Below, one piece after another: positions 18,033 to 63,446 of a stretch of 64,000 bases of DNA. The notes under the pieces are model-generated. The model made no database searches. It saw nothing but the letters and a program-made list of their open reading frames with translations, and was not told the DNA's origin. The stretch's first letter is position 1. The number at the start of each line of letters is the position of its first letter. This stretch comes from Podarcis pityusensis (Eukaryota), in NCBI GenBank assembly GCA_964106645.2, contig OZ067044.1, one strand, 5' to 3'. A program made the translations under genes and the position numbers.

Positions 18033-18112
18033 TATGACACTAGTAAATGGTCTTGGAGTTTCTAAGGCTGTAGCATTGCTAAAACTAAATGAGATCATAG
18101 AAATTCCTAGTA

Positions 18113-22959: not shown

Positions 22960-23712
22960 TATTATTTAATTTTTATTTATTTTTTTGAATGATATTTATT
23001 CAAAATTTCATCAATACATAAACACAAAAAGAAAAACAAGAAACACAGAGGGGGAAAAAGAGGAAAAGTATACAGCAAAAAATAGAACAAGAGGAAAAAA
23101 ACCCAAAAAAGAAAGAAGAAAGATACAAATCTCAGATTGCAACTTTTCATTTGCTTAATTCTTGAACCTCCTCACACCTCCCTTTTTGTATTCTAGTTTA
23201 ATTCGTTATTTCAGCAAATTCTTCCCATGTTTCTCAATTTTAATTTAAATGATTAATCTTCACAATCTCTCTTATTTATTAATCAAGATAACCTTTCCAT
23301 CTTTTAATATAGTCTGTTATTCAATTTACCTTAATCTCTCTAACCTTATCTTATCTTAAAAATCGTAAATTTTCAAAATTTACATCATATTCATACATAT
23401 CTCCTTAAAATCATTTCTACTAAAGCCAATTTAATTCCTTTCCAGCATATTCCCTCAAATTTCATTAATGTTGCACTAATTCCAAAATTAACAAAAGAAT
23501 TTCCCTTGATATCTCTAATTTTTATCCAACGTCCCTTCTTCCTGGTTTCGGGTCATGTCAGTCCTTTCTGTCCATTACATCCAGTCCATCAATCTGGTGT
23601 TCTAATGTCTGAGGCCCTTAAATCTCTTCTAGGCCCCTTCTGCAAATTTTTTTGTTCCTGTTTGTGCTTGCGCACTTCTTTGTCAATTGTTGGTTTCTTG
23701 GGGAGTGGGTTT
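22960..23712 (-). mobile_element. L1-like 3' fragment (same family as 46241-47263)
   Basis: Shares long blocks with 46460-47030 (ACCTCCTCACACCTCCCTTTTTGTATTCTAGTTT; ATCCAACGTC..TTCTTCCTGGT..TGTCAGTCCTT; CTAATGTC.GAGGCCCTTAA); T-rich tail. Confidence 0.75.
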
Positions 23713-25627: not shown

Positions 25628-25991
25628 GTAAGAAACCATTGAAATAAATAAGCAAGCATGACTGAAATTCTGTTTCGTAAAGGTGGAATGTAATTAATTT
25701 AAGGAAAATCTTTGGCTCCTGAAGGATTTTTGAAGAGAAGCACCTTAGAAAAATTGGGTGTTATTGTTTGTTTTTGCTTTTTCGCATTTCATTCAGTTGT
25801 AACAGCCTCGGAATACTTTGGCTCTAATATTGTGTCCAATATAACGGTTCTGAGGGTTTTGAGTGCACTGGTGCCTTGTCTTCTGGCTGCAGGAGTTGTT
25901 TGTTTGTTTGGTTTTTTGCTGCAGTAGATGTTGAAAGCTAGGTGTTGTAGTCCTTGATTGCAGTATTTTCTTGTGATGTTAATAGAAGTAA

Positions 25992-26365
25992 AGGTAAAAG
26001 GTAAAGGACTCCTGGACAGTTAAGTCTGATCAAAGGTGAATATGGGGTGTGGCGCTCATCTCACTTTTAGGCCAACAGACAGCTTTCCAGGTCATGTGGC
26101 CAGCATGACTAAACTGCTTCTGGTGCAGTGGGACATGGTGACGAGTGCCAGAGTGCACGGAAACACCCTTTACCTTCCTGCCACAGCAGGATCTATCTAC
26201 TTGCACTGGTGTGCTTTCGAATTGCTAGGTTTGCAGAAGCTGGGATAGAGCAACGGGATCGAGCAACCCCATCACACAGATTCAAACTGCTGACCTTCCA
26301 TTCAGCAAGCCCAAGAGGCTCAGTGGTTTAGACCACAGCGCCACCCATGTCCCTTTACCTTTACA
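25992..26365 (-). mobile_element. Sauria SINE, diverged
   Basis: Matches the family; TSD TAGAAGTAA at 25983-25991 and 26373-26381. Confidence 0.85.
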
Positions 26366-26744: not shown

Positions 26745-27241
26745 ACAGAAGAGAGAGGGGGATGTAATTCATATACTCACCTGGCCCAAAGATCATGTTT
26801 TTAGGTAGAAAATCTAGTGTGCATGTTTGTACTTCTCAACACACATATAAGAAAATGTGCAACTAAGGTATTCCAGGCCTAGTCTTGATTCGCGTTGCCT
26901 TTTATTTTCTTTTTGAGTATTAAGGGTTGTAAGATTCAGGCCTCAAAGCATATAGACCTATGTCTACAGCCTTCACATCATATTGTATGCCAGTACACAT
27001 AGGCAATCCTTAGCCAGGTAAGTGTATGAACCACTCCACAGAATGTGTATACGTAACAAGCTGCTTTCCAAAATAGAGTAGAAAATGAGAATCAATGTAG
27101 TTGATCCCTGTTATCTTCTGGTAATAACTGTTCACAATTTTAATTCAGCGTTATTAGTTCATTTTGTGTTTGTGTTTTTACTTTGTAGTATGTATTAAGA
27201 AGTTAGAAAATATGGTTACTTGCAATTATTTTTGTTTATAG

Positions 27242-27337
27242 GCAAATTAATTATATCAGTAGACAAGGATACTTATGAAGAGCTTGGACTGCAAGGCCGT
27301 CCTTCTCTGTATTCTGGTAAAAAGCCGATGAGATACA
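27242..27337 (+). CDS. RPP40: RPP40 coding exon 4
   Basis: tatag|(G)KLIISVDKDTYEELGLQGRPSLYSGKKPMRY|gtaagt, 96 nt. Confidence 0.93.
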
Positions 27338-28364
27338 GTAAGTACCTATTTATTAGATAACACCTCAGTTCTTGGCTTTCTTATGAATATAGGACATCAC
27401 ACCCTCAGCTTTTGAGGTTTGGAATTTGAATTGGATTCTGCTTGAATAAACAGATTTGCCCCCTACAGATCAATTTTCCTGATCAAGCAAGGGAAATACT
27501 TAAATAAGTAGTTCTCAACACATGTAGCTTGTGCAGATGCATGTGCCTACTTCAATGTGCATCCCTATTTATATCATAATACTCAACTCATTGGACAGCC
27601 CTCCTAGTGATGCAGCAATAAAATTGCTAGCTCATTTGCAAAGCTAGGCAGGATCCGGTAGGGTTTCAAGTTGGATGGAAGACCACGTATTGTGTGTGCT
27701 GCATTGCAGAGTGTTGGACTAGATGACCCTCGGGGTCCCTTCCAACTCTACAGTTCTATGAGTCTATGGCTCAGTCTGCCTTTTGATACAGACTAGGATA
27801 CTTATGCCCATCTTGGGTCAATAAACGTGTAGAACTAGAGATGAGTTGAGGTCAGTATTCATTACCAGCTTGTTTCACAGTGCTTTAATGGCATGTACAA
27901 TCTGAGATCGATATATATCACAGGGCACATGCTCCTATTCAAACTCCTCAGTCTCACAAAATGTGCTAGTGAGGCCTTGTTGTAGAACCCTTCCTCTAGG
28001 GAGGTAATGTTATTCTCTCCTAGGAGCAGGACTTTTTGTGTGTGGCTCCTGTGGAATGCTCTTCCTGAGGAAGTTTGCATGTCTCCTGGTCTCATTTTGT
28101 AGTCAGGTGAAAATACCTTCATTCCATCAGGCATTTGGGGATTAGTGAAGATTCTGAATGTTTTCTTATGGAATCTTTTTTGTTTTCTGTTGAAAGGTGG
28201 TCTATAAATACTGTAAATAATGAATACCTGGTGTATAGTCATTAATGTTTTTTATCGCAATGTTTAGCTTCTTTTTAGAAAGAGTACCTGCTTAGTTATC
28301 CAGGTAGCATAAGATCTACTGATACTATGTTCACATCAAAATTTATGCTTTCTTCTTTTAATAG

Positions 28365-28490
28365 TTATTACTGTTGACTTGACTGATTCAACCTTCAGTC
28401 CTGATAGTAAGAAATACAACAGAGTGATTTGGGCCTTGAAGGAAAAAATGCCACTAGAGTTTGATTTCTTGATGGCTTGGCACCAAACAG
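28365..28490 (+). CDS. RPP40: RPP40 coding exon 5
   Basis: atag|(I)ITVDLTDSTFSPDSKKYNRVIWALKEKMPLEFDFLMAWHQT G|gtaaca, 126 nt. Confidence 0.93.
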
Positions 28491-29369
28491 GTAACAGCAC
28501 GTTAACCATAAAAGGGAATGGTGGAAGACATACATTATATATACCATTCTATTTTGAAGGCTGATCCTGGTGTTTTTACATGTGACCGATAGGTGTCTAT
28601 ACACATTTAAGGTGCAAGAAAATGTAATATAGGAAGGGTAATCGGTCTGTCAGGAGAGCCCCTTGTTTGGCAAGACTGCAGACCTTAGTTTGGGAAGTGC
28701 ATGTCTTTTCTAAGTAATAGGGTTTCTTTTATGCAATAGGCTGGAATGCTTAGGCATCGAAAGTAGAACTAAATTTGTGGGAGATGATAGTACATATTAG
28801 ACACCAAAAACAATGGATTTTTTGGTTTTGGAGAAATCAGTAAATGAGGGAGTACATATATAAATATTTTAAATGTACAAAATAATAATAAGAAGAAGAA
28901 GCAGCAGCATTATTATACAAATAATCCTTAAACATTGTGTGGATGGGATAAGGAGTGTATTAGAATTATGACCTTGTGCACTTCCTAATTTGCAATTATT
29001 CTTCCTGTATTCTTGCATTTTTCCAATAATTTCATTTTTCAGTTTAAACCTCTAATAATGTTGATCACGCAAATTCCAGCAAAGTGGCACAGTCTGGTTG
29101 CTCTCCTAAGTGCTAAATGGATCTGAAAGTACACTTTTTATCCTAAAAGGAATGTGACAACTTGTGGGATTAAGAGGAGGAGGTTGGAAATCTTAGGCTC
29201 TGGCATGGCATAGATAAACAATAGATTTAATTTCGACACTGTATTTCACTAAATCTATCTTTCCAAATTGCATACAATCATAAAAGAGTTTGAATAGTGT
29301 GGAAAAAAATGCTCCTTTTAAAGTCTGTTTCTTTTTTTTAACTTTTGGGGTGTGTTGTTTGCATTCAAG

Positions 29370-29568
29370 GATCAGAAGAATCAAGTTTGATGTCATACTT
29401 TTCCAAAAACCAAATACAGGCCCTTCAGCCAAAAATAACATTCAGCACATTAAGAAATGTGCAGTGTCCAGTTCTGGAGAGCAATAAATTGGAAGGAGAG
29501 CCAGAAACAGCATGCAGTGCTCAGGAATTATTTGAATGGCTAGGTGCCATTTTCACTCACACTGACTT
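29370..29568 (+). CDS. RPP40: RPP40 coding exon 6
   Basis: caag|(G)SEESSLMSYFSKNQIQ...CSAQELFEWLGAIFTHTDL|gtaagt, 199 nt. Confidence 0.92.
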
Positions 29569-30268
29569 GTAAGTATCTGTTGCTTGTTGTAAGTATCCAA
29601 CTATTTTTCTTCAAAAGAACCCCAATTGGCTTAACATCAAATTATACACACACACACACACTCACGAGTATTAAAAATAGTAGGAAAAACATCACTATAA
29701 AATGGCAAAACCCATCATATTTTCAAAATGAAAGGAGCAGCCAAGCAAAAGGAGGAGTATCCACAACACAAGACATCCACTTTCAGACATCTGTTGAAGT
29801 CCTTTTTCTGCCGACAGAGCCAAGCCCCTGCTTAAACTTCCCAGCCTTTTTAATGATTATTTTCTATTGTTTTTATTGTCTTTTGTGTTTTATTATGCTT
29901 GTATAAATTGTTGTACACTGCCTCGATATTTTAAGTGATTTGGTGGTATATAAATATTTTTATAAATTAAAGTTGTTTAGACACTGTAGTACATAATGTC
30001 ATTTGGATAGTTATTATCATATCTGGGTTATTAAAAAGTAAGCTGAATTTTTCTGCTGAACATCACTGTTGTCCACAGATCTCAAAGGGCACAATCTACT
30101 GACACAATGGGAATTGTACAGGAGAATTTACTAAATGGATTTTGTCCAGTGAAAGGGGAAATTATTCAGCTCTTGGTGATTTAGCTGTATGGTGCACTAG
30201 CAGAACAATTATTTAGCAGTTGGAATGTTAAAATATTAAAAGAGTCTTGCATATCTTCTTTTTTGCAG

Positions 30269-30403
30269 AGAAAATACATCTTCTAGTTTCTTATCAACAT
30301 ATTCATGTCCTCAACCGAGCACAACAGTAGAACAAGCTTTGTTGTGTACAATAACCGGCTTTATACTTCCAGAGAAGATAATTCATTTGTTTGAACAAAT
30401 ATG
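30269..30403 (+). CDS. RPP40: RPP40 coding exon 7
   Basis: tttgcag|ENTSSSFLSTYSCPQPSTTVEQALLCTITGFILPEKIIHLFEQI|gtaagc, 135 nt. Confidence 0.93.
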
Positions 30404-30879
30404 GTAAGCAGTTAGCTATACAATCTGTCCTATTTAGCATGTTATAACTACACCTGGAGTTGATCAAATTGAGCCCTAAACACACAACAACATAAATACC
30501 ACTGAACTGATTTCTGAATATACATGCATTGGGTTGCACTGCATGTGTGTTCATGCAAAACTGAACAGAGTATTATATTTGTTTCAGTGTTTTTCCAATC
30601 ATTTGATTCACAGCCAATTTCAGGGAGGGGGTGCAGGGGGAAGCCCTGTTACACAAGCAGAAGTCCTTGTGCAGGGTTTCTACTGATGGTGCTGGTTAGG
30701 TGAATCCCTCCCTGTGTGTTTATTTGAACAATCTTATGTACATACTCTTTATCAATAAGACTTATTTCTCTGTATATATCCATAGGACCAAGCTGTTTGC
30801 TTGAACAGCTATGATCTAACTTCTATTGCAAAGCTTAATATAATTTATAGTTTTGCTTCTCTTTTCCTACCCACAACAG

Positions 30880-31075
30880 TTCCTATTTTGAAGAACCAAA
30901 GTTGGCTCACTGGATATCTCTCATTGTTCATGGCTTTGCTGACAGCCCTGTTTCCTGGAAAGAAAGTGAACATGGTTTCCTAAAAGGCGGGGAGAATTTA
31001 TACAACTTCGTAATTTTTAGGAGCTTGGACTACTGGCTTCAAATGGCAGTTGGAGCATATGATGATTGTCCTTAA
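30880..31075 (+). CDS. RPP40: RPP40 coding exon 8 (terminal)
   Basis: acag|SYFEEPKLAHWISLIVHGFADSPVSWKESEHGFLKGGENLYNFVIFRSLDYWLQMAVGAYDDCP*, TAA at 31073-31075. Confidence 0.93.
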
Positions 31076-34949: not shown

Positions 34950-35508
34950 GTTATCTCCCGCTTGGATTACTGCAATGCGCTCTACGTGGGGCTACCTTTG
35001 AAGGTGACCCGGAAACTACAACTAATCCAGAACGCGGCAGCTAGACTGGTGACTGGGAGCGGCCGCAGAGACCACATAACACCGGTCTTGAAAGACCTAC
35101 ATTGGCTCCCAGTACGTTTCCGAGCACAATTCAAAGTGTTGGTGCTGACCTTTAAAGCCCTAAACGGCCTCGGCCCAGTATACCTGAAGGAGCGTCTCCA
35201 CCCCCATCGTCCAGCCCAGACACTGAGGTCCAGCACTGAGGGCCTTCTGGCGGTTCCCTCACTGCGAGAAGCCAAGTTACAGGGAACCAGGCAGAGGGCC
35301 TTCTCGGTAGTGGCGCCTTCCCTGTGGAACACCCTCCCACCAGATGTCAAAGAGAACAACAACTACCAGGCTTTTAGAAGACATCTGAAGGCAGCCCTGT
35401 TTCGGGAAGCTTTTAATGTTTGATGTATTATAGTATTTTAATATTCTTTTGGAAGCCGCCCAGAGTGGCCGGGGAAGCCCAGCCAGATGGGCGGGGTATA
35501 AATAATAA

Positions 35509-39761: not shown

Positions 39762-42069
39762 TATTCTTAAACACACTTAATAGCAACTAATGTTACTTCC
39801 GAGTAAAATGTGCTTAGGAGCACAGCCAAATTTTAAAAACATCCTCACGTGCCCTTCACCCAATGTATTTCACTCTTCTCCCTGTATCTACAACAGAAGA
39901 CTGATTCACCCTGATCCATGAGTGCTCTGTGCCCAGGGAACCTCTCTCATTATTTCCTGAGCAAATTATCAGAACTGCCAATTCAGAAGAGCACACAAAG
40001 TTAACACATGGCAGCATATTACATATATAATTGGGGAGTTACGTATGCGAGGCAACTGGATGCCCAGTCAGCTGAATTGAGTAATTTCCTTGAGTTACTA
40101 CACTTCCTTGGAATGGAGGTCATTGGCATGGGCATCTCCAGGAATTTTCCCTGCAAATTAAAACACCAAAAGTTAGCCCTTGCCACACACCCCTCGTGCC
40201 CCATAGATGCCCATGGTCACAGGTGGTGTTTCTGTGATACAAGCTTTATTTGCATGTATACATAGCCAGAACATGAAAGCAGCTTCACCTCATTAACTTT
40301 CCAACATGTCCTGCTCACCCACTAGGTTTCTAGGGTCATAGCTTTCTCTTTCAGACGTAGTTTCAAGAATGGCAGTCTTTTTTGTTCTCTTTCAGACACA
40401 GAAACATTGATTACATCTCCAGCCACGGCAGGAGGGAAGAAAGACATGCACCCTTCTACATGGAGCCCCAGGTATTTTGTTTCCGTGGCAACACTTCACC
40501 TGTACTTGGTCATCACTTTAGTTGTGCAAAGACAGGTTGTCTTTTAGTGATCCATGATGACTGGGGTGGGGGGATATCAACTAGAGCCTTGATTTCTCTT
40601 CTGTCTTCCCTCCCCACCCCCAGCAAAAAAAAATGGTGGTTGTAGCACATACAGCAGATTACAAAACAGAAGCATTCCCCTTCAAAACAGCGTGAGGATA
40701 GAGGGGGGAGCCATGTATCATTCCTTTATTCAACATCATTCAGTCCCTCTACTCCTTAATTGGTGGAACAAAGACTAAGTAAAATCTTATAAATTCTACT
40801 TGGGGTGGGGGTGGGGATTAAGATCTGTAAATCTTCCAAGTTTTACTGCAGCTCTGTTCATTTAAATGGAGGTTGTGCAACATCAGTATTTGGAGGATTG
40901 TGTCCATAGAAAATAGCAATCTATGTTATGTCTGGATGTTTTTAAAGCTGGTTGGATCTCCATTCTCAATATAATGTATCATGACCCTTGAGTTAATAGA
41001 AACAAGCCCCATTGCTATGAGTACCAGAGCTTTTAGAGCAGAGTACTTGCATTTACCCATGGAGGGGGCTCCTAAGAGAAGAAGTCACACCTCTTCAAAA
41101 GGTAAAATATGAACCACACTCTTGGCTTCTTTGTAAAAATAAAGAATCAAATGGCTTATTGTTGTGTCCCAGTTCACAGCTAGAACATAAATGGCTTTGA
41201 ATTAACCCCTTTTGATTGTGAAAGTGCCCTTATTCAGATTTGCAGCAATGTTGCATGTTCAGGATTAAGGTTTAGTTCAAATTAACTTGTTTATTGCCGA
41301 ATGTCATATGTGGTCTTAGACACAAGTGTCTATAAAGCTCATACAAACTCATTTGCAGATAGCTCATACATCACTCAGTGAAAACCATAGGCATTGTAAA
41401 TTATTAGCTCAGGCCAAAGGTATCTTTATTAGGTCAGTCTAAGGCATGTGTGTAATCTTTGCAGGGCTGTAACTCTAATGCTGCATAAAGCAAATCATAC
41501 AGCAAGATCTTAAAGAGCATTTGAGACATTCTGCTATGTCAGTTGTCAAGTGAGAGGTCATATTTCATTAATTTGCATTTTCCTTTCTCCTTTGAAAATG
41601 GGCAAGGGAATCAATCTGACATTCAAATGTGAAACCTAGAAGTGTGCCCTAAACAAATCTGCCAGGCTTCATTCCAGAATCTCTGGTGACCAGTGGAATC
41701 AAAACATTTACAAGGTGAGAAATAAACCAACTTGCTCACTTTGGTCTGTTAGCTAGAAATGACACCAGTACTATACAGTGGTGCCTCGCAAGACGAAATT
41801 AATTCGTTCCGCGAGTTTTTTCGTCTAGCGAATTTTTCGTCTTGCGAAGCACGAAATCCCATAGGAATGCATTGAAATCCAATTAATGCGTTCCTATGGT
41901 CAAAAAAAGTCAAAACAAAGCCAAATTTGGTACAACAAGAGTTTATTAAGTGCTCTTTAAAGTCACACATACTGTAAAGAGCATTTCAAAAATTGAAGGA
42001 ACAATAAATTAAGTTTCTAAACATGACAGGAAAAACATTTAAAAATCAACAAAGTGTACATTACATTTT

Positions 42070-43770
42070 CTAAGACTCTGGGGGACCACTCGAAGAAGGT
42101 TCCTCTTCCACTCTTTGCTTCTTGCTGAAGAACCTGTCCATGGTCTGCTGCTTCATCCGCCTTTTCAGCACCTCCCTGAAAGGCGACATGACCGTCGTAT
42201 CAAAAGTGTTCGCAAGGTCATGTGCCACGTGCTTGTTAGGGTGGTGCCGCTGTGCAAAAGCCTGCACATCCTTCCACTTCATGCAAATGTCCCTCAGTTC
42301 TTTGGAGGACAGCCGTTCCTCAGTTGCTTCCTCCTCTTCCAGCGAGGCCTGCTCCTGCGCAGCCTCTGCCTGCAGTTCGACCAGCTCCTGGGTGGTCAGC
42401 TCGTGGTCGTGCTCCTCCACCAGCTCACTGATGTCCTCCTCTGTGACCTCCAGGACCATGGTCCTCCCCAAGGCAACAATGTCCTGCACCACTGTTGACT
42501 CTGGTGCATCAGAGTCACTTGGTGCCACTCAGTCCGGCCACAGGCTGCGCCAAGCGCAATTCAGATTTCTCTGGCTGATCCCTTTCCAGGCCGTGGTGAT
42601 CATCTTCAAGCAGGTGACGATGTCGAGGTGGTCCTTCCAGAATTCCCACAGGGTGATGGTGGTGCAATCAGTCACCTCGAAGCATCGCCTGAAAAGCTCC
42701 TTGGTGTAGAGTTTTTTGAAATTGGCGATGACCTGCTGATCCATCGGCTGGAGCAGTGGCGTGGTGTTAGGCGGCAGGAACATGATGTTGATGAAGCTGA
42801 ACTCCTCCAACAAGTCCTCTTCAAGGCCTTTAGGATGAGCAGGAGCATTGTCCATCAGAAGCAAAGCCTTCAGCGGCAGGTCGTTGTCCAGCAGGTACTG
42901 TTTGACAGCAGGGCCAAAAGCAAGATTGACCCAGTCCACAAACAGCACACGTGTGACCCAAGCCTTACTGTTGGATCGCCACATGACACTCAGCTGCTCC
43001 TTGTCGACCTTGTGTTTCTTGAAGGCCCGTGGGTTCTCCGAGTGGTACACCAGCAGGGGCTTGATCTTCAGGTCACCGCTTGTGTTGGCACAGAAGAGCA
43101 GGGTCAGACGGTCCTTCATGGGCTTGTGGCCAGGCAACTTGGCCTCCTCCTGAGTGATGAAAGTCCTTTTGGGCATCCTCTTCCAAAACAGCCCAGTCTC
43201 GTCGCAGTTGAAGACCTGCTGTGGAATGTAGCCCTCCGTCTTCACAGCCTCCAGGAACTCCAATGCAAAGTCTTCAGCCGCAGGAACATCAGAACTGGCA
43301 GCCTCTCCATGCCTGACCACGTTGTGGATTCCAGATCTTGTCTTGAACTGGTCAAACCAGCCTCTGCTTGCCTTGAAGACTTCTGGCTCGCCTGAGGTTC
43401 CTGGCTGTTCCCGGACGAGGTCTGCGTGCAAGGCCTTGGCCTTCTCACAAATCACGGCCTCAGTCACTGTGTCCCCTGCACGCTGCTTCTCTTCTAACCA
43501 GATGAGCAGCAACTTCTCGACCTCCTCCAGAACAGCTGGGCGGTTCTTCACGATCCTGGTGACTTCCTTGGCTGCATCAGTCGCAAGGATCTTCTCCCTC
43601 ATCTTCAGGATGGTGCCGATGGTCGATGGGTTCCTGCCATACTCCCTGGCGAGGTCTGTCACACGCATTCCACCGTCGTGCTTCCGGATGATCTCCTTCT
43701 TCATTTCCAGCGTCACCTTCTCCTTCTTCCTCTCGCCGGCCTCTGCAGCAGCAGTCTTCTTGGGTCCCAT
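42070..43770 (-). pseudogene. Tigger-type DD36D transposase (about 566 codons) interrupted by one in-frame TGA at 42529-42531
   Basis: HTH-psq/CENP-B-type N-terminus (KVTLEMKKEII..; FKASRGWF); catalytic FNCDETGLFW, LLMDNAPAH and LQPMDQQVI; ORFs 42529-43770 and 42070-42528 abut in the same frame. Confidence 0.92.
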
Positions 43771-44110
43771 GGCAGCACAGCTCCTAGCTTCGTAAACTCA
43801 GGGGGGGAAAAAATCAGTGCTTTACACCCAAAAAATTCAAAAGCACCCAGCCACCCACCACACAGGAATTCAAACCCAGAACCAAGTCCTTGAATTCCAA
43901 ACACCCAACCCAAAATCCAAAAACCCCAAAAAAAGTTTTAAAAGTTTAACTTACGAAATGGCTGCAAATCACCAAAGTCTTCAAAATCCTCAAATGGCTG
44001 CAAAAGAAGTTTTGGAAAAGCTTTAAAAATCACCAAAGTCTTCAAAAACCTCAACTGTTCCCCCAGCCACCCACCCATCACACAGAAATTGCAAACCCCT
44101 CCCCAACTGT

Positions 44111-44565
44111 TGCAAACCCCTCCCCAACTGTTCCCCCAGCCACCCACCACACAGAAATTCAAACTCAGAAACTTTTTTTGAAAAAAAAACAACATGGCCC
44201 AATGGTCACAGAAAATCAGAAAAATTCAGAAAAACCCACACAAGCTCCCAGATTCTTGCAAACCCCTCCCCAACTGTTCCCCCAGCCACCCACCACACAG
44301 AAATTCAAACTCAGAAATTTAAAAAAAAACAAAAACAACATGGCCCAATGGTCACAGAAAATCAGAAAAATTCAGAAAAAACCACACAAGCTCCCAGATT
44401 CTTGCAAACCCCTCCCCAACTGTTCCCCCAGCCACCCACCACATAGAAATTCAAACCCAGAATTTTTTTTTAAAAAAACAGCAGAGTGCCCCAATGGTCA
44501 CAAAAAATCATAAAAATGCAGAAAAAACCCACACAAGTTCCCAGATTCTTGCAAACCTCTCCCCA
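44111..44565. repeat. about 146-bp tandem repeat x3 inside the Tigger 5' region
   Basis: TTGCAAACC.CTCCCCAAC recurs at 44111, 44256, 44402 and 44549. Confidence 0.9.
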
Positions 44566-45548
44566 ACACCAAGTCCTTGAATTCCAAACACCCCAACCCA
44601 AAATCCAAAAACCCCAAAAAAAGTTTTAAAAGTTTAACTTACCGAATGGCTGCAAAAGAAGTTTTGGAAAAGCTTCAAAAATCAGCAAAGTCCTCAAAAA
44701 CCTCAAGAAAGGCTACCACACCGCGTGCTATGTGTTGCTCCTCGAAGTCAAGTCGCAACTGCACCTCTTCAAGCAATGCACCCTGGGTATTAACGGTTTT
44801 ACGAAAAGGGAAACAAACTTGCAAGACGTTTTCGTCTTGCGAAGCAAGCCCATAGGGAAATTCATCTTGCGAAGCAGCTCAAAAACGGAAAACCCTTTCG
44901 TCTAGCGAGTTTTCCGTCTTGCGAGGCATTCGTCTTGCGGGGCACCACTGTACAGTGTGTGTTACACTTTAGATTGAGGGAAAATATAGTACGTAGTGAT
45001 TTTTTGTTGTTCACTTTTGCATGAGTGGGTGAAAGACACAAAAAGTTACAAAATAATTTGACCAATTAACATATTACATTAATCTGCCAGTTGCCCTGTG
45101 CCTGCAAGGGGAAAGGGCACTCAGGCCAAAGGAACAAGAGTCCCTGCCTGCTATTCAGACAAGAACAGGTGCAAGGGAAGAGCATCTAGTCCCAAATGCT
45201 CATTTATAGCTCACCACTTTGTTCTTGCACTGAAGAATTGATCTTCCTTCTCTACCTGTTCACCCTGCTTCCTTTCCCTTTAGTATATTTGAAAGCCTGA
45301 TGGCAGTGCCTGCCTCTGCTTTATTGAAGCAAGTTGCTTTGGAAGAAAATAATGGTTTGAAAAATGGGTTAAATAGGGTTGTAGTTGGCCAGCTACAGTT
45401 GTGCCTGGAGGAAGCAGATATTTGAGACCCATTTTAGTCTGGTTTCAGACCTGGTTTTAGTACCCTTGCTCAGCTTGACTGATTATCTTTATCAGGAAAG
45501 ATACAGAGTGTCAGTATCGGTATCAAACTTTATTTTGGTCACAGGTTA

Positions 45549-45789
45549 AAGGTAAAGGTAAAGGGACCCCTGACCATTAGGTCCAGTCGTGGCCAACTCT
45601 GGGGTTGCGGCGCTCATCTCGCTTTATTGGCCAAGGGAGCCGGCGTACAGCTTCCGGGTCATGTGGCCAGCATGAGTAAGCCACTTCTGGCGAACCAGAG
45701 CAGCGCACAGAAATGCCGTTTATCTTCCCGCCGGAGTGGTACCTATTTATCTACTTGCACTTTGACATGCTTTCGAACTGCTAGGTTGG
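45549..45789 (-). mobile_element. Sauria SINE, 5'-truncated
   Basis: Matches the family; flanked by CAGGTTA at 45542-45548 and 45790-45796. Confidence 0.9.
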
Positions 45790-46240
45790 CAGGTTAGCAT
45801 AAGATAAAACATACGACTTAAAACACACAAGACTTAAAACAGGTAAGGAATAAAAACTAGTAATTAAAAGGTGATTATATTATACATACGTAAAAACATA
45901 GAAACAGAGACAAACAGTTAAAAGTGACTATAAGGGAGGGAGTGTGAAGGAGCACAGGTCTTGCATTTTGGGCCTAGTTTGTGGCACAAACCATCCTTTG
46001 GATGAATATCCATCGTGGCAGTGCAGAATCTAGCAACTGAGTATGTAACATGGGTTTTCATCTTGGAAGTAGCAGGGAGGTATAAAGTTGTTCTGTGTGA
46101 CCTGGGAATTTATGTAATACAGGCAAGATGAACCTAGCTCGTATATCTGTATAGTATTGGCAGAGATAAAAGACATGTTCGGTTGTTTCCAGTTGCCCAG
46201 AGCCACACGGGCATTTCCTCTCCCCAAAGGGTGTCTTCCT

Positions 46241-47263
46241 TTTTTTTTTTTTTTAAAAAAGTAATATTTATTAATAATTTCAAAATTACAGAAAAAAAAG
46301 AAAAAAAATTAAAAACAACACCACAATACATAGAAAAAAAAAACAAGAAAAAAAAAAGACATAAAAACCAATGCAACAATACAGCAAAAAGATAAAAAAG
46401 AAGGGGAAAAAAGACACAAATCCCATATTACATATCTTTAACTTCCATTTGCTTGTTTCATTGACCTCCTCACACCTCCCTTTTTGTATTCTAGTTTGAT
46501 TGATTATTTCAGCAAATTCTTTCCATCTTTCTCAATTTTTACTAAATAATTTATCTTGACAATTTAACCTATTAATTAACTCAACAAATCCTTTCCATCC
46601 TTTCCCCATATTCTGTTATTCAAATTACCTTAAGTTGTTTAACCTTATCTTACCAAAAAATACTTTAGAGCTTAACGCTTAATACTTGATTATACATAAC
46701 TCCTGATATCTTTTCTACTAGAGTCATATAGTTTCATTCCAACATTTTCCCTAATGTTCATTAATTTTAGGCTAATTCCCTAGGAAAAAAAATTTTCTTT
46801 ATAAATTTTCTTCCAATCTTCATCCAACGTCTCTTCTTCCTGGTCTCGGGTCGTGTCAGTCCTTACTGTCCATTCCATCTAGTCCATCAACCTGGTAATC
46901 TAATGTCCGAGGCCCTTAAGTCTCTTCCATGTCCCTTCTGCAGATCTTCTTCTTCTTGTTTATACTTGCCCTTTTCCTTGTCTTTTGTTGGTCTCTTTCT
47001 TAGTTTCTTTCCTTTCTCGTTGGGGAGTAGGTCTCTGGGGGATTCCAACCCAAAATTATCTTCGTCTCCCTTCATCCAACCAGCCCATTCCCCAGAGTCC
47101 CACTCCCCACAATCATCAATGTAGTCCAAAAAATATTTAAAAACATATTTCGAGGTCTCTCCAAAGTTAAGAACCTCCTCAGCTCCAGACTCCCCCTGGC
47201 TGACTCCAACTTCAATCTTCAAAGACAGCGGCTTATGCTCCTGTAGGGCCTCGGGTCCCATAT
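46241..47263 (-). mobile_element. L1-like 3' fragment with poly(A) tail
   Basis: Poly-T at about 46240-46254; 11-bp TSD GGTGTCTTCCT (46230-46240, 47264-47274); decayed RLMD*ME..RDQEEETLDEDWKK resembling a squamate L1 ORF2 C-terminus. Confidence 0.78.
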
Positions 47264-47365: not shown

Positions 47366-47577
47366 CAGTGGTACCTCGGGTTACAGAAGCTTCAGGTTAC
47401 AGACTCCACTAACCCAGAAATAGTACCTTGGGTTAAGAACTTTGCTTCAGGAGAACAGAAATCGCGCGGCGGCAGCAGGAGGCCCCATTAGCTAAAGTGG
47501 TACCTCAGGTTAAGAACAGTTTCAGGTTAAGAACAGACCTCCAGAATGAATTAAGTTCTTACCTCGAGGTATCACTG
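47366..47577. mobile_element. Tigger/pogo-type MITE
   Basis: TIRs CAGTGGTACCTCG / CGAGGTATCACTG; TA on both sides; shares GGCAG..GGAGGCC..ATTAG with the 39522 MITE. Confidence 0.85.
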
Positions 47578-50500
47578 TATATGGCATCTGGGAGGTGAGG
47601 TATCTTCTGGTTTCACTGATTAAAATTTTTGGGGACCTGGCTAGATCTGCTTGGCGTTTGGTATCTTCCACGTGCTGTTTGATGCTTTTTTTGGCTTGTT
47701 CATACCCCATGTCGAATAGGATCTGCGGGGTGAAGCCTAGAGTTGTTATTATGTTTATCATTGCACGTTTCCATGTCGTTTGGAAACTGACCTTAAAAGT
47801 TAAGGGAGGAAGGAGCAAGGCTTTGGAGACGTGTTTAGGCACTTGTAGGGCTGATCTTAAGAATTTAGATTGTACCAGTACTAATGGCGCACAATTGGCA
47901 AGGGGACCTAATTGGGCACCATATACAAGCTGCACGATGGATTTGGCCTCAAACAGTTTGAGGGCTGAAGGTATATATTGTCCGCCTTTAGTCCTGAGGT
48001 ACCTGAGCATTGCATTTGCGCTTCTCTGGGCATTCCCTACAACATAAACCTTGTAGGCATTTCTACTTTCCGAGGAGTGAAGGGTTATACCCAAATATTT
48101 GCATCAGGTGAGCTGCTCAGTCTTATGGCCACTGAGCAATCTTATGGCATGAGCAAGGTTTGGGCCTTTTGGCAAAGCACATGATCTTGATTTTCTGATA
48201 ATTTAGTTCTAGTTTGCTCTCCTTGCAGTATGCTGCCAGTGTTTTCAAGCCTATAGGAGTTCTTGAGAGGATTGCTGCGTCATCAAGTTCAGAGGAAGTG
48301 CAGCCTTGTTGGTGTTCCTTGATCTCCCAGTGACTTTAGACACCACTGACCATGGTGTCCCTGTGGAATGACTTGGGGATGGGGAGTTGGAGGCACCATT
48401 TTACTGTGGCTCTGCTCCTATTTGCAGGGTCAGTACCAGAAAGGGCTCCCTTGGGAGGAAGGGTGGAATAGAAACTTCATACATAAAATGCAAAATATAT
48501 TAATATACAATCTGTGTGCCAGAGTTTCCCATATGGCTTGGGTAGTGCTAGTTTCAACCAAGTGTTTGTGGGCAGAACAACAAGCCAGGCACCTGTTCCT
48601 ATGATTGTGGAACCTCTTCCCTTCCTATTGGCAACAATAATGTTAAATGCATTTATCTGAAGTGCCATTTCAAGGTACAGTTTTTTGAAACAGGTTTCAA
48701 GACCTTCCTACTTGATTCAAGTTCCAACTTAACCTTAATTATTCTTTTAAAATAATTGGTATGTTTAATGTCCAACCACAAGACGTTCCCAGATGAATGC
48801 ATCTTGCTTATAACCATGGACAGTCCATGAGATAATTTCAGACTCATTGGTAGAGTTGCACAATTTTGCTTCCTGGATGCAACTAGAGACTGGAGAACAG
48901 GGTGACTCAGTGATTCATAAGTGAAACCAATGCTTAGTGATGTAATCCAGAGGCCATGGCTGCAGCCATCTATGAAGCTATTCATAACAAGAATAAAACT
49001 ACTGATCAAGTGTTTAACAGAGTATCTCTGAATGAGCAACATGCTGTAATTCAGCGATGTCACATTCTGCTTGCATCATTGCTTTCTACAAAGCAGAATG
49101 TGCAACACCCTAAAAAAAAATGCTGTTAAAATTTTGTCATTAGAGTCTGACAATCATTCTTTATTGTCTACCACACAACTGTGGGCTGAGAGCCTATGAG
49201 AGGTTGCAAAATACGTGCATGGAGTAATGAATGTTGGGATTCTTGGTATGATCTCTTACTGTTGAGAGAGGTAACATCTCAGAGATCCCCTTTGAGACCC
49301 TGACTGAGAACTCTGGAAGTGGCAGATGGGAGAAAGAGCTGCTCCATTCCTGTCCTTTGGGTCATTGCCTCTAGAGTATGAAAGGATAACAAATAGGACC
49401 AAATCCCACCAAGAAACTAAACAAAGTAACAAATGCAGGGAGGACAGGGAGGGGAAGAAAATGAATATTAGCCAGTCAACAGGTGCAAGAAAAATCGAAT
49501 TTATTAAGCTTAAACTTCCCCAACATCTCAGCAATCCTGAGTTCCTGAAAGAATGCCTTTCCTCACATTTACCAGCCTGTGTATTGAGAACATATAGTTC
49601 AGTATGATTTGCAGGAGTTTCTCAAAAAAATATTCCAGAAATACAAGATGTCTGCTCTACAGTAACTTGGAGCATGGCTTTCAGTATGTCTTCCCCTGTT
49701 CTGTGGAATGGCATTGTGGCAGAGACATGAAAGGCACCCAGAATCTGTACCTTCCAGAAATAACTGAATACGTTTTTGTTTTGACGAGCATTTCCATCTG
49801 GATAAAAAAGCCTGTCTTAGGTTTAAGAACAATACAAAATTAACCCCTATCTTCAGTTGTTTTTGTGCAGTCTTTAAAATGATTTTAACTGGGGGGGTTT
49901 TATGGTGTGTCAATAAATCACCTTGAAATGTATGTAGGTGATTCATAAATTGTTATTAATAGCAAAAACTCATCAAAAGCCTTCTTCTGGGTGCAACTGC
50001 ATTCCAAAGTAAGGCAGATGGTGACAAGGAACAGGACCCTTTAGGCTGTGGCACTATCTTTCTTCCAGAATTAGATGGCATGCTCCTTAGAGGCAGGAAT
50101 CACTATATGTTTTTGTCTATACAAGGTTATGTATTGGTAAGTTTATTTTCGTTTAATTTGAACTATTTCAGTGTTTCAAATTATTGAGCAATGGTTGAAC
50201 TTCTAGATGGTCCCACTCCTAAAAGACCTGTACTTTGTCAGCTGTATTGGCTGCAAGTCTGTTTCAAGGCCCAATTTAAAGGGCTGGCTTTAAACCTTAA
50301 AAACCTGAATTGCTTGGGTACCTAAAAGGACACTTTTACCTATATGCATTCACTTGAACCTTAAGATCATCTTTAGAGACCCAGCTCTTAGTTCCCCCCA
50401 CTAAATGAAGTGAGGTGGAGAGCCACCTTTTTGGTACTAGCACATTATGGAACAACCTTCCTGTTCCATACACCTCTTTGTGCTAGGTGCAGCTCCCAAA

Positions 50501-51588: not shown

Positions 51589-51764
51589 NNNNNNNNNNNN
51601 NNNNNNNNNNNNNNNNNNNNNNNNNNNNNNNNNNNNNNNNNNNNNNNNNNNNNNNNNNNNNNNNNNNNNNNNNNNNNNNNNNNNNNNNNNNNNNNNNNNN
51701 NNNNNNNNNNNNNNNNNNNNNNNNNNNNNNNNNNNNNNNNNNNNNNNNNNNNNNNNNNNNNNNN
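51589..51764. other. assembly gap (176 N)
   Basis: Run of N. Confidence 1.
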
Positions 51765-54254: not shown

Positions 54255-54603
54255 GGGTGGCGCTGTGGGTTAAACCACTGAGCCTAGGACTTGCCGATCA
54301 GAAGATCGGTGGTTTGAATCCCCGCGACGGGGTGAGCTCCCGTTGCTCGGTCCCTGCTCCTGCCAACCTAGCAGTTCGAAAGCACGTCAAAGTGCAAGTA
54401 GATAAATAGGTACCGCTCTGGTGGGAAGGTAAACAGCATTTCATTGCGCTTCGCTGGTTCACCAGAAGCAGCTTAGTCATGCTGGCCACATGACCCGGAA
54501 GCTGTCTGCGGACAAACGGCGGCTCCTTCGGCCAGTAAAGCGAGATGAGCGCCACACCCCAGAGTCAGCCACGACTGGACCTAATGGTCAGGGGTCCCTT
54601 TAC
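54255..54603 (+). mobile_element. Sauria SINE in the last intron of CDYL
   Basis: Matches the family; TSD CTTTATCCA at 54246-54254 and 54604-54612. Confidence 0.92.
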
Positions 54604-55009
54604 CTTTATCCAAGGACAGCCCAGCCTCCTCCACCTCAGCTTTCCCAACCTGATCAGGAGGGTCTGAAGGGGAACTGTGAGCAGGCTCAACTAAATGTGT
54701 TTACAGTTCACTGCACAATCAGGGACATTACGCACAATCATAATATTTGGTAACTAGAAAGATGTAATTCTTCCTCCAAGTTAAATAGGCCATTGCTCTC
54801 TTTGTCTGCCACATGGAGAGTAGAAATGAGCAAGTCATGAGCACCTGTCAGATGGATGAAGGGAAACACCTCAAAGCTGATGGTAAGGTCGTCTACGCCA
54901 GCTGAGCTGAAGATAAGCTGGCATAGCTTGCTTATCCTGGCCCAGCCAGCTAAGCTGAATGCAAGCCTCTTCAAAAGGAGTGCAACCAGAGGGTTAAGAA
55001 GTAGGCTTC

Positions 55010-55140
55010 AGACATCTGAAGGCAGCCCTGTTTAGGGAAGCTTTAAAAGTTTGATGGACTATTGTATTTTAATATTTTGTTGGAAGCCACCCAGAGTGGC
55101 TGGGGAAACCCAGCCAGATGGGCAGGGTATAAATAATAAA

Positions 55141-55179
<39 letters not shown>

Positions 55180-55189
55180 TATTATTATT
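55010..55189 (+). mobile_element. L2 3' end with (TTA)n tail, same family as 34950-35547
   Basis: AGACATCTGAAGGCAGCCCTGTTT.GGGAAGCTTT..CCCAGAGTGGC.GGGGAA.CCCAGCCAGATGGGC.GGGTATAAATAATAAA. Confidence 0.88.
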
Positions 55190-56388
55190 GTGACCTAGCA
55201 ACTTGGCTTGTTTTCCTTCCGCAGAACAGCAGCAGCTGCCTCACTGCTGAACAGGATTTGGATCTGGTGTAACTCTATGCTGACAACTTACACCAGCTTG
55301 CTTTATGCAGGCTTCCTGTGCATACAATTGCTCCCCAAATGCCTTAACTGTGCTGGAACCCAGGTGTGTGAGTTTAAGAATTATGACAGAAAAATAGTAT
55401 TTTCAGTAATGATTATGTAACGCAGAAAAAAACCAAATAATGTTTGTTGCATCTCTGACTCTGGTTCATTAATAAGAAGCTCAACCTATGCATAGCGTAG
55501 CCAAGAGGGTTGCATTGAATACTATTTTTTATTATGTAAGTAGGACTTATGCAGGGTGGAACCCTGTAGATTTAACCCTAAATATTTCTTTGTTGTGATG
55601 GCAGGGTGGTGGGGGGTTGGTTATTTTTGGTCTGTCTTATCCAAGCAAATATAAACAGAAACAAAACACCACTTTGGACACTCTGTTCAAATATCAAAGC
55701 AGTTAAAAGGAGCTCTTTCTATCTACAGTTTAGAACAAGATATTTTTGGCTAGCTACCTCAGTACAACTGTGATCCTTACTCTAAAATGTAAGACTAACT
55801 TTATAAAGCTGCCGAACTTCACTTTCCAGATTTATATAAAAATTCCCACAACATGTGAAAGAGCTTATTTAAAAGCTGTATTACAAGTGTGGACAGCTTT
55901 CAGGTGGACATTAGGATAGTTAAATGTTCACGGGATCAGTTCACACTCACTCCCCCCTCCAAACAAGCTGTTCCATGATGTAGTTGGGCATGACTTTATG
56001 CAGATACAACAGCTATTCTTGCATTCATGGCCACTGGGGAAAATGCTGGCATAATTACGGAAATTGCTTCTACCTGCATATTTTTAAATTTAATTTAATT
56101 ATTGTTTGATTTTATACCCATGTTATATATCTGATGTTAGCTGCCCTGAGCCTAACTTCGGCTGGGGAGGGCGGGATATAAATAAAAGTTTGTTATTTAT
56201 AATGTTGTTGTTGTTGTTATCACACAACCCAATTGGCTTCCCCATGTTTTGGGGCGTATTCAGGGCTTAGGAGGGCTCAGCCCTGCTCAAACACTGAGAA
56301 AATTCACTATGCGAAGTGTTCCTTAGCCACTATAATAACTACAAATCACTTATTCAGCCTTAAGTGAAATAAGGTAAAAGAAACTTAC

Positions 56389-56532
56389 AACTGAATTACA
56401 TGTGACAAGTTCCTTAATTCGAACCATGACTTCTTGTGTGAATGTTCCTGGCCAAAAAACTTGCGACACCAGTCCCTTGGCACATGCTTCTTGTGCAGTC
56501 AGCTTCCTTCCACTGAATAACATTTCATTCGC
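56389..56532 (-). CDS. CDYL: CDYL penultimate coding exon (upstream exons lie beyond the window)
   Basis: cctcag|ANEMLFSGRKLTAQEACAKGLVSQVFWPGTFTQEVMVRIKELVTCNSV|gtaagt, 144 nt, phase 0-0. Confidence 0.95.
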
Positions 56533-59500
56533 CTGAGGAAAATAGCAATGTTTTTTTGTAACATGAAATATGATGAGGTTATCAAAACATTTTGAATACA
56601 AACCTTGCTGTTTCTAGAAATGCCTCTACAGGTTGGAACAATTTACTGGCCTGGACTATTTCTTCTTGTTTTGTTTTTCCTTTTCCATGGACTGAAACAA
56701 AATCAAAGACTAAATCTACCACTAATAAATATTTGGTGCTAGCGTGCAAGGCCCTGTCTAGAAGTGACACAGTTACAGTGCAAGGGGTTTGGCATGGCAT
56801 ACAATTTAGGTCTCTCAACTGAATTGCTTTTAAAATGTGCACTCTGCTAAAATCTCAGTATAGATCTTTGCATCAGATAATGAAGGAATTGGGAAACAAC
56901 CATTAAAGAAAGAAAGAAAAATCCCAAACATTCTTAGAAAGGTATTTTTTAAAATATATTTTCTTCGCTGTCCTCATCATTGTTGAATAAACGATCAAAA
57001 CAAGCAAGTATGCCCTTAATTACAACCTTCACTGATTCAGACTGGCTTAGTTGATTGACCAGCCAATTAAAGCCTGTAGCACTAGAGAAGCATGAAAGCA
57101 AATGGCATGGTGGGATAAACAGAAACTCTGCATAAGCAGCAGATACTAAATGATGATGCCAAAAATTTGCTTAATAAATAAATAATGCTCTTAAAAACTT
57201 TTTTTATCCTGTAAATATATTACATACTTGAAAGATCCTGCAAATACAATGAGTTTCACATTTTTAATTGGCTTGAATCTAGACAGTATTATTCATCTTT
57301 AATTATGAAAATTTGGTATATTTTCATATTGGATGCCGATGAGAATTGCACACCCAAATTCCTCACATCAATGGATCTTGTAGGTAAAGTTGTTGGTGCC
57401 AAAGTAAGGTAAACACATACTGCATTGTGACATATCCATTTATAATAAGAGACTATGGGGACAAGTAGTGCATAAATCATCCAAATAAATAAATAAATAC
57501 CTAACTTGTTCCTGAAACAGAGCTCGCTCCATTCAATGAGAGCATCTCTTCTTTTTTTAGACTGAGACAAAGCATTATTATAGGCAGATCACAAACTTTG
57601 AAACAAAAGTTTGTAAAAATAGGCACTTTGATTTCTGTTGTTCTTGTTTAATCTGGAAAGTAGTCTAGTTCGTACAGGTAAAATTGAGAACAATTTCCAC
57701 TTGAAATCATTTCAGCTAGCAGGACTTTGGCTTAAATGATCCAGTGCTATCACAGTCCGCTGCCCATTTAAGTTTCAGCCAAACACCCACTTGCATACAT
57801 TTGAGTATCAAACTTCTTTGTGCATCAGATTATGGCATACTGTTTTTTTCAGTGAAAGCCATGTTTGATTGCACGCAACACAAGCAAGTTTGGGTGAGGA
57901 CACAAATGCCAATTTTTATTTTTATGACTTCAGAAATGGGACAAATTGGGGGCCAAACAGGACAGGGGGCTCTGTACTGCCAAAATGGTACTGTTCCCCT
58001 TTTAAAGGGAAGGGGTGGCAACCCTGGTTCCAATGCAACTGAGCTGCTACTTCTTACATAAAATACTGGGGATGCCAATTGTTATACAAGTTACCATGCA
58101 AATATTATAGATGTATTTTAATTTGGACACACTAGCTTTTCAGACTTTAAAATAATGGCTTGAATGGATTTAAACTGTGATAAAAATTTCAGATATTGTG
58201 AAAACTGAAATATGGATAGTGAATTCAAATTAATTTGTGAACTAAACATGATGCATGAAAAGAGCCGACAGACTGAACATATTTTAGCATGACTAATACT
58301 TGGTTAAATAATGGAGTGGCTTTGAGCCATATCACAAAATGACTCACAGACATGCAAATGGGCGTCCCCAAGTTTACAAATGTGCAAGCTAAGGCTCAAG
58401 AATATAAGATCCTCTCTCATGGCTGTGGGGTGAAACAGTGCTAGTGTTGCACAAGAAAGCCCACAAACCTTTGATTTGTAGCCATAGTCTCACCAAAATG
58501 TGTTATCTAATATCCAACCGCACAGTCACTATCAAATATACCATAAAAAAGATGTTTATATATGATTTTTTAATGTGTTAAAGATCCCTGATGCCAGGAA
58601 ATGTAAAGCTTTTTTTTTAAAGTGTGTTATACAAGTTGAAAGGGGAAGCTGTGAATCATATAAACAAGCCGTGCAAAATTCCAAAATGCATGTACACATT
58701 CATAAACTCAAAGCATGATGAAGACCCTCACCCAGGAGTCCAAAACTCAACTAGCATTGTTGCAACTTCCTGAAATCAAAGCATTTTTTTTTACTCTTTG
58801 GAGGGTTGAAGAAATTTGAATAATTAATACAGAGACTGTAACGAGATAGCCACACAAAGGACTTCTCACAACAAAGGACACCCAAAATGTCACCAGCGTT
58901 ATCACAAAATCAAATCAGTGCTACTATTTACATATGCCATTCAGCTCAGTTTACAAGCTTGCTAAACTGCAATAGTTCCACTGATGTCACTAACATCCAA
59001 ATCTTGACAGGACCATTACTATCCAAAGGAGGTATTTACACGCCCAAAGAATGTTCTGCATGAGCATCTATGGAAATGTGATTACAGCTGTAAAATCACA
59101 GGAGGTTTGGAAATTCCTTTTTTTAAAAAAAATAAAAAAGGGGGGGAAAGGAGAAGCAGCAGCTTTAACAATTCCTATACATCTCAAGAAAGAAAATGTA
59201 AAAAGGCAGGGGGAAGGGTGTATGAAAACACCAGGCTTCAAACAAGAAGCTGTGATTAGATATCAGAGGTTTTCCTATTATTATGTTATCTGAACATGCC
59301 AGAATGCAGATATAAGCATTTCAGTGCATGAGAAAATATGAGCAAAAACTGAGCTGTCAACTTTTAAAGATGCCAACTGATTAGACAGAAACTCTATTCA
59401 AATGTCATCAATTTTACCCTGTGTAATTAAATGCATTTCTAAACCTATGAGAGTTTTATCAGCAGGAGCTTGCAGAGAGGAAGACTAAATTTAAGCAAAC

Positions 59501-60262: not shown

Positions 60263-60600
60263 CAGTGGTGCCCCGCAAGACGAATGCCTCGCAAGACGAA
60301 AAACCCGCTAGACGAAAGGGTTTTCCGTTTTTCGATGCGCTTCGCAGGACGAATTTCCCTATGGGCTTGCTTCGCAAGATGAAAATGTCTTGCGAATCTT
60401 GAGATTTTTTTCGCTTTCCCCCCCTTTTTCTAATCCGCTAATCCGCTAATAGCCTTTTAGCCACTAAGCCGCTAAACCTTTAATAGCTGCTAAACCGCTA
60501 ATAGCGCTAATCCGCTAATAGGGTTGCTTCGCAAGACGGGAAAACCGCTAGACGAAGAGACTCGCGGAACGGATTAATTTCGTCTTGCGAGGCACCACTG
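60263..60600 (+). mobile_element. 338-bp MITE derived from the 41776-44950 Tigger family
   Basis: Same TIRs and subterminal sequence as the large element, in opposite orientation; TA at 60261-60262 and 60601-60602. Confidence 0.93.
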
Positions 60601-63310: not shown

Positions 63311-63446
63311 CAGGCATAGGTAATCTCGGTCCTCCAGATGTTTTGGGACTACAACTCCCATCATCCCTGACCACTGGTCCTATTAGCTAGGGATGATGGG
63401 AGTTGTAGTCCCAAAACATCTGGAGGGCCGAGGTTGCCTATGCCTG
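63311..63446. mobile_element. palindromic hAT-type MITE (136 bp)
   Basis: About 59-bp arms CAGGCATAGG..CATCATCCCT / AGGGATGATG..CCTATGCCTG; 8-bp TSD G(C/A)TAACAG at 63303-63310 and 63447-63454. Confidence 0.88.

Follow-up and report, generated by a model that had tools for sequence, protein, structure and literature searches.

Anatomy of the Tigger element

The 64,000 nucleotides of Podarcis pityusensis DNA analysed here (contig OZ067044.1, assembly GCA_964106645.2; this whole stretch is termed the window) contain a full-length transposon of 3,175 bp on the minus strand, at 41776–44950, which belongs to the Tigger family of the pogo superfamily. A first-pass annotation, made from the sequence alone, had described a near-intact element of this type with both terminal inverted repeats (TIRs), a TA duplication, a downstream AATAAA and a transposase that appeared to be one nucleotide short of complete. 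The boundaries, the TIRs, the duplicated TA and the polyadenylation signal were all borne out; the claim that a single base separates this copy from a working enzyme was not. We propose, with a probability of about 0.85, that this is a once-autonomous Tigger of wall lizards whose insertion into a TA, in the interval separating RPP40 from CDYL, was followed by neutral decay. The ends and non-coding parts of the element, and a miniature inverted-repeat transposable element (MITE) found elsewhere in the window, are located as follows:

41774–41775, no strand assigned: TA target-site duplication (TSD), 3' side of the element
41776–41797, minus strand: 3' TIR, 22 nt, identical to the 3' end of the MITE
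41820–41851, minus strand: subterminal motif of the 3' end, present once exactly (41836–41851) and once in degenerate form (41820–41835)
41942–41947, minus strand: AATAAA polyadenylation signal
43771–44830, minus strand: 5' non-coding region, between the subterminal motifs and the ATG
44110–44567, no strand assigned: tandem array inside the element, 3.1 copies of a 146-bp unit, 90% matches
44831–44944, minus strand: 16-nt inner TIR motif of the 5' end, repeated subterminally in five copies
44929–44950, minus strand: 5' TIR, 22 nt, identical to the 5' end of the MITE
44951–44952, no strand assigned: TA TSD, 5' side of the element
60263–60600, plus strand: MITE of 338 bp from the element's own family, flanked by TA on each side; its two TIRs match those of the element exactly

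The two 22-nt TIRs of the element differ by a single mismatch, at position 11. Decay was considered as its cause and rejected: the MITE shows the same asymmetric base, so the mismatch belongs to the family. Over 200 compared terminal bases the MITE and the element differ at 16, and the interior of the MITE is unrelated filler of short CTAATCCG-like repeats. The inner 16 nt of the TIR recur subterminally. Counting the TIR copies, there are five at the 5' end (44929–44944, 44913–44928, 44897–44912, which is degenerate, 44861–44876 and 44831–44846) and three at the 3' end, two of the eight being degenerate. No match to this motif with up to three mismatches was found in the remaining 60.5 kb of the window outside the element and the MITE, and its subterminal copies are probable additional binding sites for the transposase.

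The 5' region of the element measures 1.18 kb. Two donor-like GTAAGT sites (44642 and 43954) and a duplicated block (44562–44706 / 43875–44054) lie in it, and a pyrimidine tract precedes the transposase ATG; the region may hold an intron of the 5' untranslated region (UTR), which would take out five upstream ATGs. Since the units of the tandem array differ from one another by more than the copy has decayed, the array is probably older than the present insertion. The element is free of N; the sole N run of the window (176 bases, 51589–51764) lies 6.6 kb away from it.

The transposase and its lesions

The transposase is read from the minus strand, and its landmarks are listed below; "private" denotes a residue of the window copy found in no other family copy that covers the position.

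42070–43770, minus strand: transposase frame, 566 codons plus stop, with one internal stop (ATG at 43770, TAG at 42070)
43582–43731, minus strand: CENP-B_N DNA-binding domain, aa 14–63 (Pfam PF04218, E=4.5e-6; CENP-B structure 1hlv, E=4e-9)
43564–43566, minus strand: private G69E; G in 9/9 covering family copies and 58/58 more distant named relatives
43321–43527, minus strand: HTH_Tnp_Tc5 DNA-binding domain, aa 82–150 (Pfam PF03221, E=2.8e-11)
42550–43203, minus strand: catalytic region, with D190 at 43201–43203, D307 at 42850–42852 and D344 at 42739–42741
43081–43083, minus strand: private A230T, within the catalytic domain; 7/7 family copies and 58/59 distant relatives have A
42625–42648, minus strand: private R375W and F382L; R in 43/59 and F in 51/59 distant relatives, W and L in 0/59
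42529–42531, minus strand: premature TGA at codon 414, in LWPD*VAP; Cys in close family copies
42454–42456, minus strand: private G439V, beyond the stop; 4/4 family copies and 55/58 distant relatives have G

Criteria for the Tigger open reading frame (ORF) and the DD29-36D definition of its catalytic triad are as given by Gao et al. (2020; PMC7386202), and the TIRs of Tigger elements are put at 8–33 bp, typically starting with CAG, in PMC9219625. The window element has a TA duplication, short TIRs, a single ORF with CENP-B_N/HTH_Tnp_Tc5 and DDE_1 domains, and a triad within the DD29-36D range, so that its ends, domains and triad all support the classification. The Pfam DDE_1 match spans aa 219–407 (E=1.4e-36). 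D190, D307 and D344 were confirmed as the three catalytic Asp residues, 36 residues separating the second from the third as annotated, a spacing shared by 60 of 64 aligned rows. The frame, which begins in the context GCCATGG, runs for about 1.7 kb without a frameshift: its 566 codons align gap-free with a 566-aa protein of Lacerta agilis.

In pogo and Tc1-mariner elements, helix-turn-helix (HTH) domains bind the TIRs, a DDD centre integrates the element into TA, and MITEs are mobilised in trans. With its two CENP-B-type HTH domains the transposase encoded here would have bound its TIRs, and probably also the 16-nt subterminal repeats; it would then have paired the ends, and cut and pasted the element with its DD36D centre, duplicating TA. 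Short MITEs, of which that at 60263–60600 is one, would also have been its substrates in trans.

The L. agilis protein just mentioned (P0003), an uninterrupted "TIGD1-like" sequence, was the best match, with 518 of 566 residues identical (92%) and no gaps. It represents a cluster of 45 sequences, and has Cys at 414 and Asn at position 190 (D190N). Once shorter proteins had been searched as well, twelve named lacertid copies (L. agilis 2, Zootoca 1, P. lilfordi 1, P. muralis 4, P. raffonei 4) were 89–98% identical across their in-frame parts. Eleven are partial, being gene models that are truncated, contain a frameshift or lack an internal segment, and none is both full-length and DDD, the single full-length copy carrying D190N. 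Their distance from the per-column majority ranged from 0.9% (3/352, P. lilfordi) to 7.6% (20/262), with a median near 4%, in a set of cluster representatives and annotated gene models that under-samples very young and very decayed copies. Judged by these protein distances the family is young, as had been annotated, and multicopy in Podarcis, Lacerta and Zootoca; the outcome set beforehand as a refutation, divergence above 10% with no intact ORF anywhere, was not what we found. Nor is the window copy special as a source of transposase, a natural uninterrupted copy (P0003) being already present in public databases.

The search in which P0003 was the best match returned 120 matches, and the counts refer to the 63 that were named, the 57 without an organism name being omitted. 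Among the named relatives, the first catalytic Asp is replaced by Asn in nine (P0003 and P0007 among them). Since that Asp codon comes directly after a Cys codon, a CpG hot spot may recurrently inactivate the transposase lineage.

The reading of the TGA as a TGY to TGA change at a Cys codon is supported, residue 414 being Cys in all three close family copies that cover the position. Cys, which had been annotated as typical here, is the commonest residue (32/63 named relatives) but is not invariant, the rest being mostly Ala (11), Ser (8) and Val (5). Contrary to the first-pass annotation, the stop is not the only lesion. Thirteen of the 566 positions are private to the window copy, comprising the stop and 12 missense changes, and the columns hit by G69E, A230T and G439V are 100%, 98% and 94% conserved, respectively, in 54 named relatives outside the lacertid family. 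A single base change would give this copy an open frame, and not thereby, on this comparison, a working enzyme. CpG transitions, as deduced from the codons, account for four of the 12 missense changes. The abundance of CpGs noted in the first-pass annotation was confirmed (observed/expected 0.47 in the ORF, with 60 CpGs, against about 0.1–0.4 in most 2-kb intervals and 0.29 in the right flank), but these transitions argue against calling them undecayed.

A simulation of neutral change, run on the codons of the copy itself, served as the comparison for the private changes, of which a stricter definition of singletons left 11. The mean conservation of the columns hit was 0.690, versus 0.686 in the simulation, and three changes fell at columns at least 90% conserved, versus 3.1 simulated; because the two agree, we regard the decay of the copy as neutral. 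Between 12 and 17 missense changes imply 16–25 substitutions in the ORF, or 1.0–1.5% of its length, at which level the probability of at least one stop is 0.42–0.60. With a stop expected about half the time, the TGA is an ordinary product of decay, and an assembly error is not needed to explain it. When singleton changes were pooled over all copies a deficit at conserved columns appeared (0.593 vs 0.692, p=7e-4), at odds with strict neutrality. Splitting by lineage placed it in the L. agilis copy, and the Podarcis-type copies fitted neutrality (p=0.19), with a slight deficit in the count at highly conserved columns (p=0.06–0.09).

Several points weigh against the picture of a neutrally decayed, already damaged copy. 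With only 11–12 changes the neutrality test has little power, and the direct contrast between private and between-genus changes was not significant (p=0.14; pooled p=0.10 and 0.81). Several private calls in the C-terminal half are based on two to four covering copies, the divergence estimate derives from protein comparison, and it is conservation that marks G69E, A230T and G439V as presumably damaging. Intact, near-identical copies may also exist among the other 44 members of the L. agilis cluster, and these would make the family younger than its visible representatives indicate.

An uninterrupted transposase ORF, the criterion of autonomy, is lacking here owing to the TGA at codon 414, and the copy, whose ORF has taken an estimated 17–25 or so point mutations with the stop among them, is most likely inactive. 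It would yield at most a 413-aa protein without the conserved C-terminal region and with several damaging substitutions, and would probably be impaired even with the stop alone reverted. As a helper it would be dead, yet its ends may still be movable by an intact enzyme.

Age, activity and alternative explanations

P. muralis, P. raffonei and P. lilfordi all carry the subfamily to which the window copy belongs, and the split between P. muralis and P. lilfordi is placed at about 18–20 million years ago (Mya) in PMC10214862. Lacertini crown ages of 15–47 Ma are given in PMC6733905. Dating from the copy itself is nearly uninformative: by our own arithmetic, two lacertid rates reported in PMC6381762 turn 1–1.5% into roughly 2–50 million years. 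Most probably, the insertion dates back millions of years and has become fixed.

That other, intact copies keep the family active today in certain genomes of Podarcis or Lacerta we consider rather unlikely. The 45-member cluster around a full-length 566-aa protein, the P. lilfordi copy with only 3/352 residues off the majority and the unmutated TIRs of both element and MITE all speak for such activity. Against it, none of the 12 visible copies is full-length with DDD, their median divergence from the majority is near 4% of residues, the ends of MITE and element differ at 16/200 bases, and the family is shared by Podarcis species that separated about 18–20 Mya (PMC10214862).

The view that the copy lies one base from a working transposase, the remaining substitutions being tolerated or the TGA an assembly error, appears unlikely to us. 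The gap-free 566-codon frame, the three Asp residues, the intact ends, the absence of N from the element and a distance of only about 3% from the per-column family majority (18/565 residues) are all as it would predict. It must nevertheless accommodate 12 other private substitutions, of which three stand at columns 94–100% conserved in the 54 distant relatives, plus F382L and R375W, and the stop is the expected outcome at this level of decay.

Horizontal acquisition had been raised in the first-pass annotation; recent acquisition from a distant animal received no support from the protein searches and seems improbable. Horizontal transfer (HT) of Tiggers is described as common in PMC9219625, and transposases of the spadefoot toad Pelobates, at about 71% identity, are grouped with those of lizards in one starred clade; the differences between Lacerta and Podarcis, moreover, avoid conserved columns (0.515 vs 0.687), and such purifying selection is an HT signature. 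However, no named relative outside the lacertids exceeded about 71% over the full length or 78% over fragments in the protein searches, and with no close relative named in a distant taxon a recent jump from outside the lizards is unsupported. These comparisons are of proteins only, and the branching order roughly tracks host relationships. This order comes from a quick search for a tree of 63 rows, comprising the window copy and 62 named proteins (seven redundant named matches omitted), nearly all TIGD1-like database matches and with no reference transposases from other pogo families. The window copy grouped with the Podarcis copies, followed by Lacerta, the Zootoca subfamilies and then Pogona, and the starred clade that holds it also includes Hemicordylus, Phrynocephalus and Pelobates. 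The Pelobates Tiggers (P0007, P0051, P0106 and P0129) nest in what is otherwise a lizard-only clade, making them a candidate for an old lizard–amphibian transfer.

The between-genus differences bear on transfer among lizards. The 29 L. agilis-specific residues avoid conserved columns (0.515 vs 0.687 under neutrality), none of 5000 simulations being as low, and the 80 fixed differences to a Zootoca subfamily do likewise (0.577 vs 0.692, p=3e-5). The differences between Lacerta and Podarcis seem to have arisen under purifying selection, a hint of transfer between lizard hosts, although contrasting private with between-genus changes directly gave no significant difference. A fuller scenario, in which the lacertid Tigger lineage has been repeatedly re-founded by lizard–lizard HT, giving genus-specific subfamilies set apart under purifying selection, with a Podarcis burst among the youngest and fully functional copies in some lacertid genomes, is speculative and on balance unlikely; were it true, such copies, or the family majority sequence only a few residues from them, would supply an active amniote Tigger transposase.

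Very improbable, finally, is a domesticated TIGD-type gene, a functional truncated product of 413 aa, or a TGA recoded through selenocysteine or readthrough: both HTH domains and the entire Pfam DDE_1 match lie in the 413-aa N-terminal part, the start context is good, a polyA signal is present and the TGA stands in place of Cys, but the other copies have Cys at that codon, the lost C-terminal part contains conserved residues (I431 57/59, L440 58/58), and intact TIRs and TSD, a multicopy family and neutral substitutions in the copy are the opposite of what Gao et al. (PMC7386202) expect of a domesticated TIGD gene (no TIR or TSD, single copy, purifying selection). Selenocysteine recoding was rejected after a search of 41700–45000 against Rfam, SECIS elements included, gave no match at E up to 1.

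Neighbouring features and comparison with known systems

Three host genes were recognised in the window, the third tentatively. PPP1R3G is a single-frame gene in a CpG island (13461–14477, minus strand), 95% identical to that of Podarcis raffonei, 92% to P. muralis and 89–90% to Zootoca, with no value above 74% outside the lacertids; by these values the host is a lacertid, probably a Podarcis. It was considered as a host benchmark for HT and rejected as too fast-evolving and indel-rich (63–71% to Pogona). Five frames match Pfam Ribonuc_P_40 in order at 27199–31072 on the plus strand (5 of the 148 scanned, from 294 plus-strand frames listed) and represent the later coding exons of RPP40. On the minus strand, an enoyl-CoA-hydratase-like exon at 56353–56613 (ECH_1, E=1.5e-4, below the Pfam curated cut-off; 1 of 125 frames) is one we take to be part of CDYL. 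The element seems to be placed between the 3' ends of RPP40 and CDYL, and the MITE probably sits in a CDYL intron.

Other repeats were also observed. An interspersed repeat of 250–370 bp occurs in five copies that are 68–93% identical (17686–18033, 20354–20732, 25989–26353, 45547–45793 and 54255–54609); we presume it to be a Sauria SINE from its resemblance. A 730-bp repeat has two copies (22972–23699 and 46240–46997, 73% identity), one adjoining a long A-rich tract (46295–46402), and may be a LINE fragment; a 193-aa open frame lies near it, at 47522–48103. A further open frame of 157 aa (34950–35423, plus strand), which to our eye resembles the C-terminus of an L2/CR1-type LINE ORF2, is followed by an ATT microsatellite also present at 55010–55189. 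Self-complementary stretches at 63311–63446 (87% over 136 bp) and 5954–6036 (83% over 84 bp) are probably other palindromic MITEs.

The Tigger copy is an ordinary fossil. Near-intact copies are common, Diaby et al. (2022, PMC9219625) reporting at least one intact Tigger for 231 of 325 species, some of them reptiles. As a study object the family has moderate value, being young (about 1–3% decayed) and accompanied by a matching MITE. With it one could readily ask if vertebrate cells support the activity of a Tigger transposase, a matter that concerns the ancestry of human Tigger1 and the TIGD genes as well as transposon tools, and it suits the question of whether DNA transposons persist in lizards by hopping horizontally from genus to genus. 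Either question is best approached from the set of family copies rather than the window copy, and a consensus-based test of activity is reasonable. No cell assay of a Tigger transposase, amniote ones included, was found in the literature searched, the scope of which did not extend to a 2024 survey of 130 transposons.

The lacertid family appears to be undescribed in the papers searched, although there is a Repbase library for Podarcis. No paper came up in a full-text search combining Podarcis and Tigger, the supplements of PMC7386202 and PMC9219625 have no entry for Podarcis or Lacerta, and nothing on the present family was found in the literature on lacertid repeat landscapes; the figures given in PMC9498476 and PMC6050309 are at the level of repeat class. 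Its closest counterparts are the "tigger transposable element-derived protein 1-like" models of Lacerta agilis, P. lilfordi, P. muralis and P. raffonei, which are 91–98% identical, colinear and gap-free. The Podarcis models are partial, and NCBI and UniRef annotate all these models as genes, not as a transposon family; multicopy TIGD1-like sequences are regarded as pseudogene-like by Gao et al. (PMC7386202). Unlike the window copy, P0003 is uninterrupted, but it has D190N and about 29 lineage-specific residues.

As with the Tiggers described in PMC7386202 and PMC9219625, the element has a TA TSD, TIRs of about 20 bp starting with CAGTG, and a single ORF with CENP-B-type HTH and DDE_1 domains, and its 3.2 kb lies within the range of 1.0–4.5 kb given there for the family. 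Tigger TIRs of Myotis and Colletes listed in the supplements of these papers start with the same 10 bases. It departs from the surveyed Tiggers in the inner TIR motif peculiar to the lacertid family, which is repeated subterminally, and in the 146-bp array of the 5' region. Passer, a sister family in the pogo superfamily, likewise has short TIRs and a single ORF as described by Wang et al. (2023, PMC9976928), but it is DD35D, encodes 400–500 aa, and its native copies are active in human cells, making it an example of a working pogo tool. A lizard parallel is provided by Novick et al. (2011, PMC3014272), who described young non-autonomous Tc1/mariner families in Anolis, with TA-flanked MITEs of which some are less than 5% diverged and some have Tigger-like ends. 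In that account autonomous partners were not found, whereas here a full-length partner and its MITE share one window.

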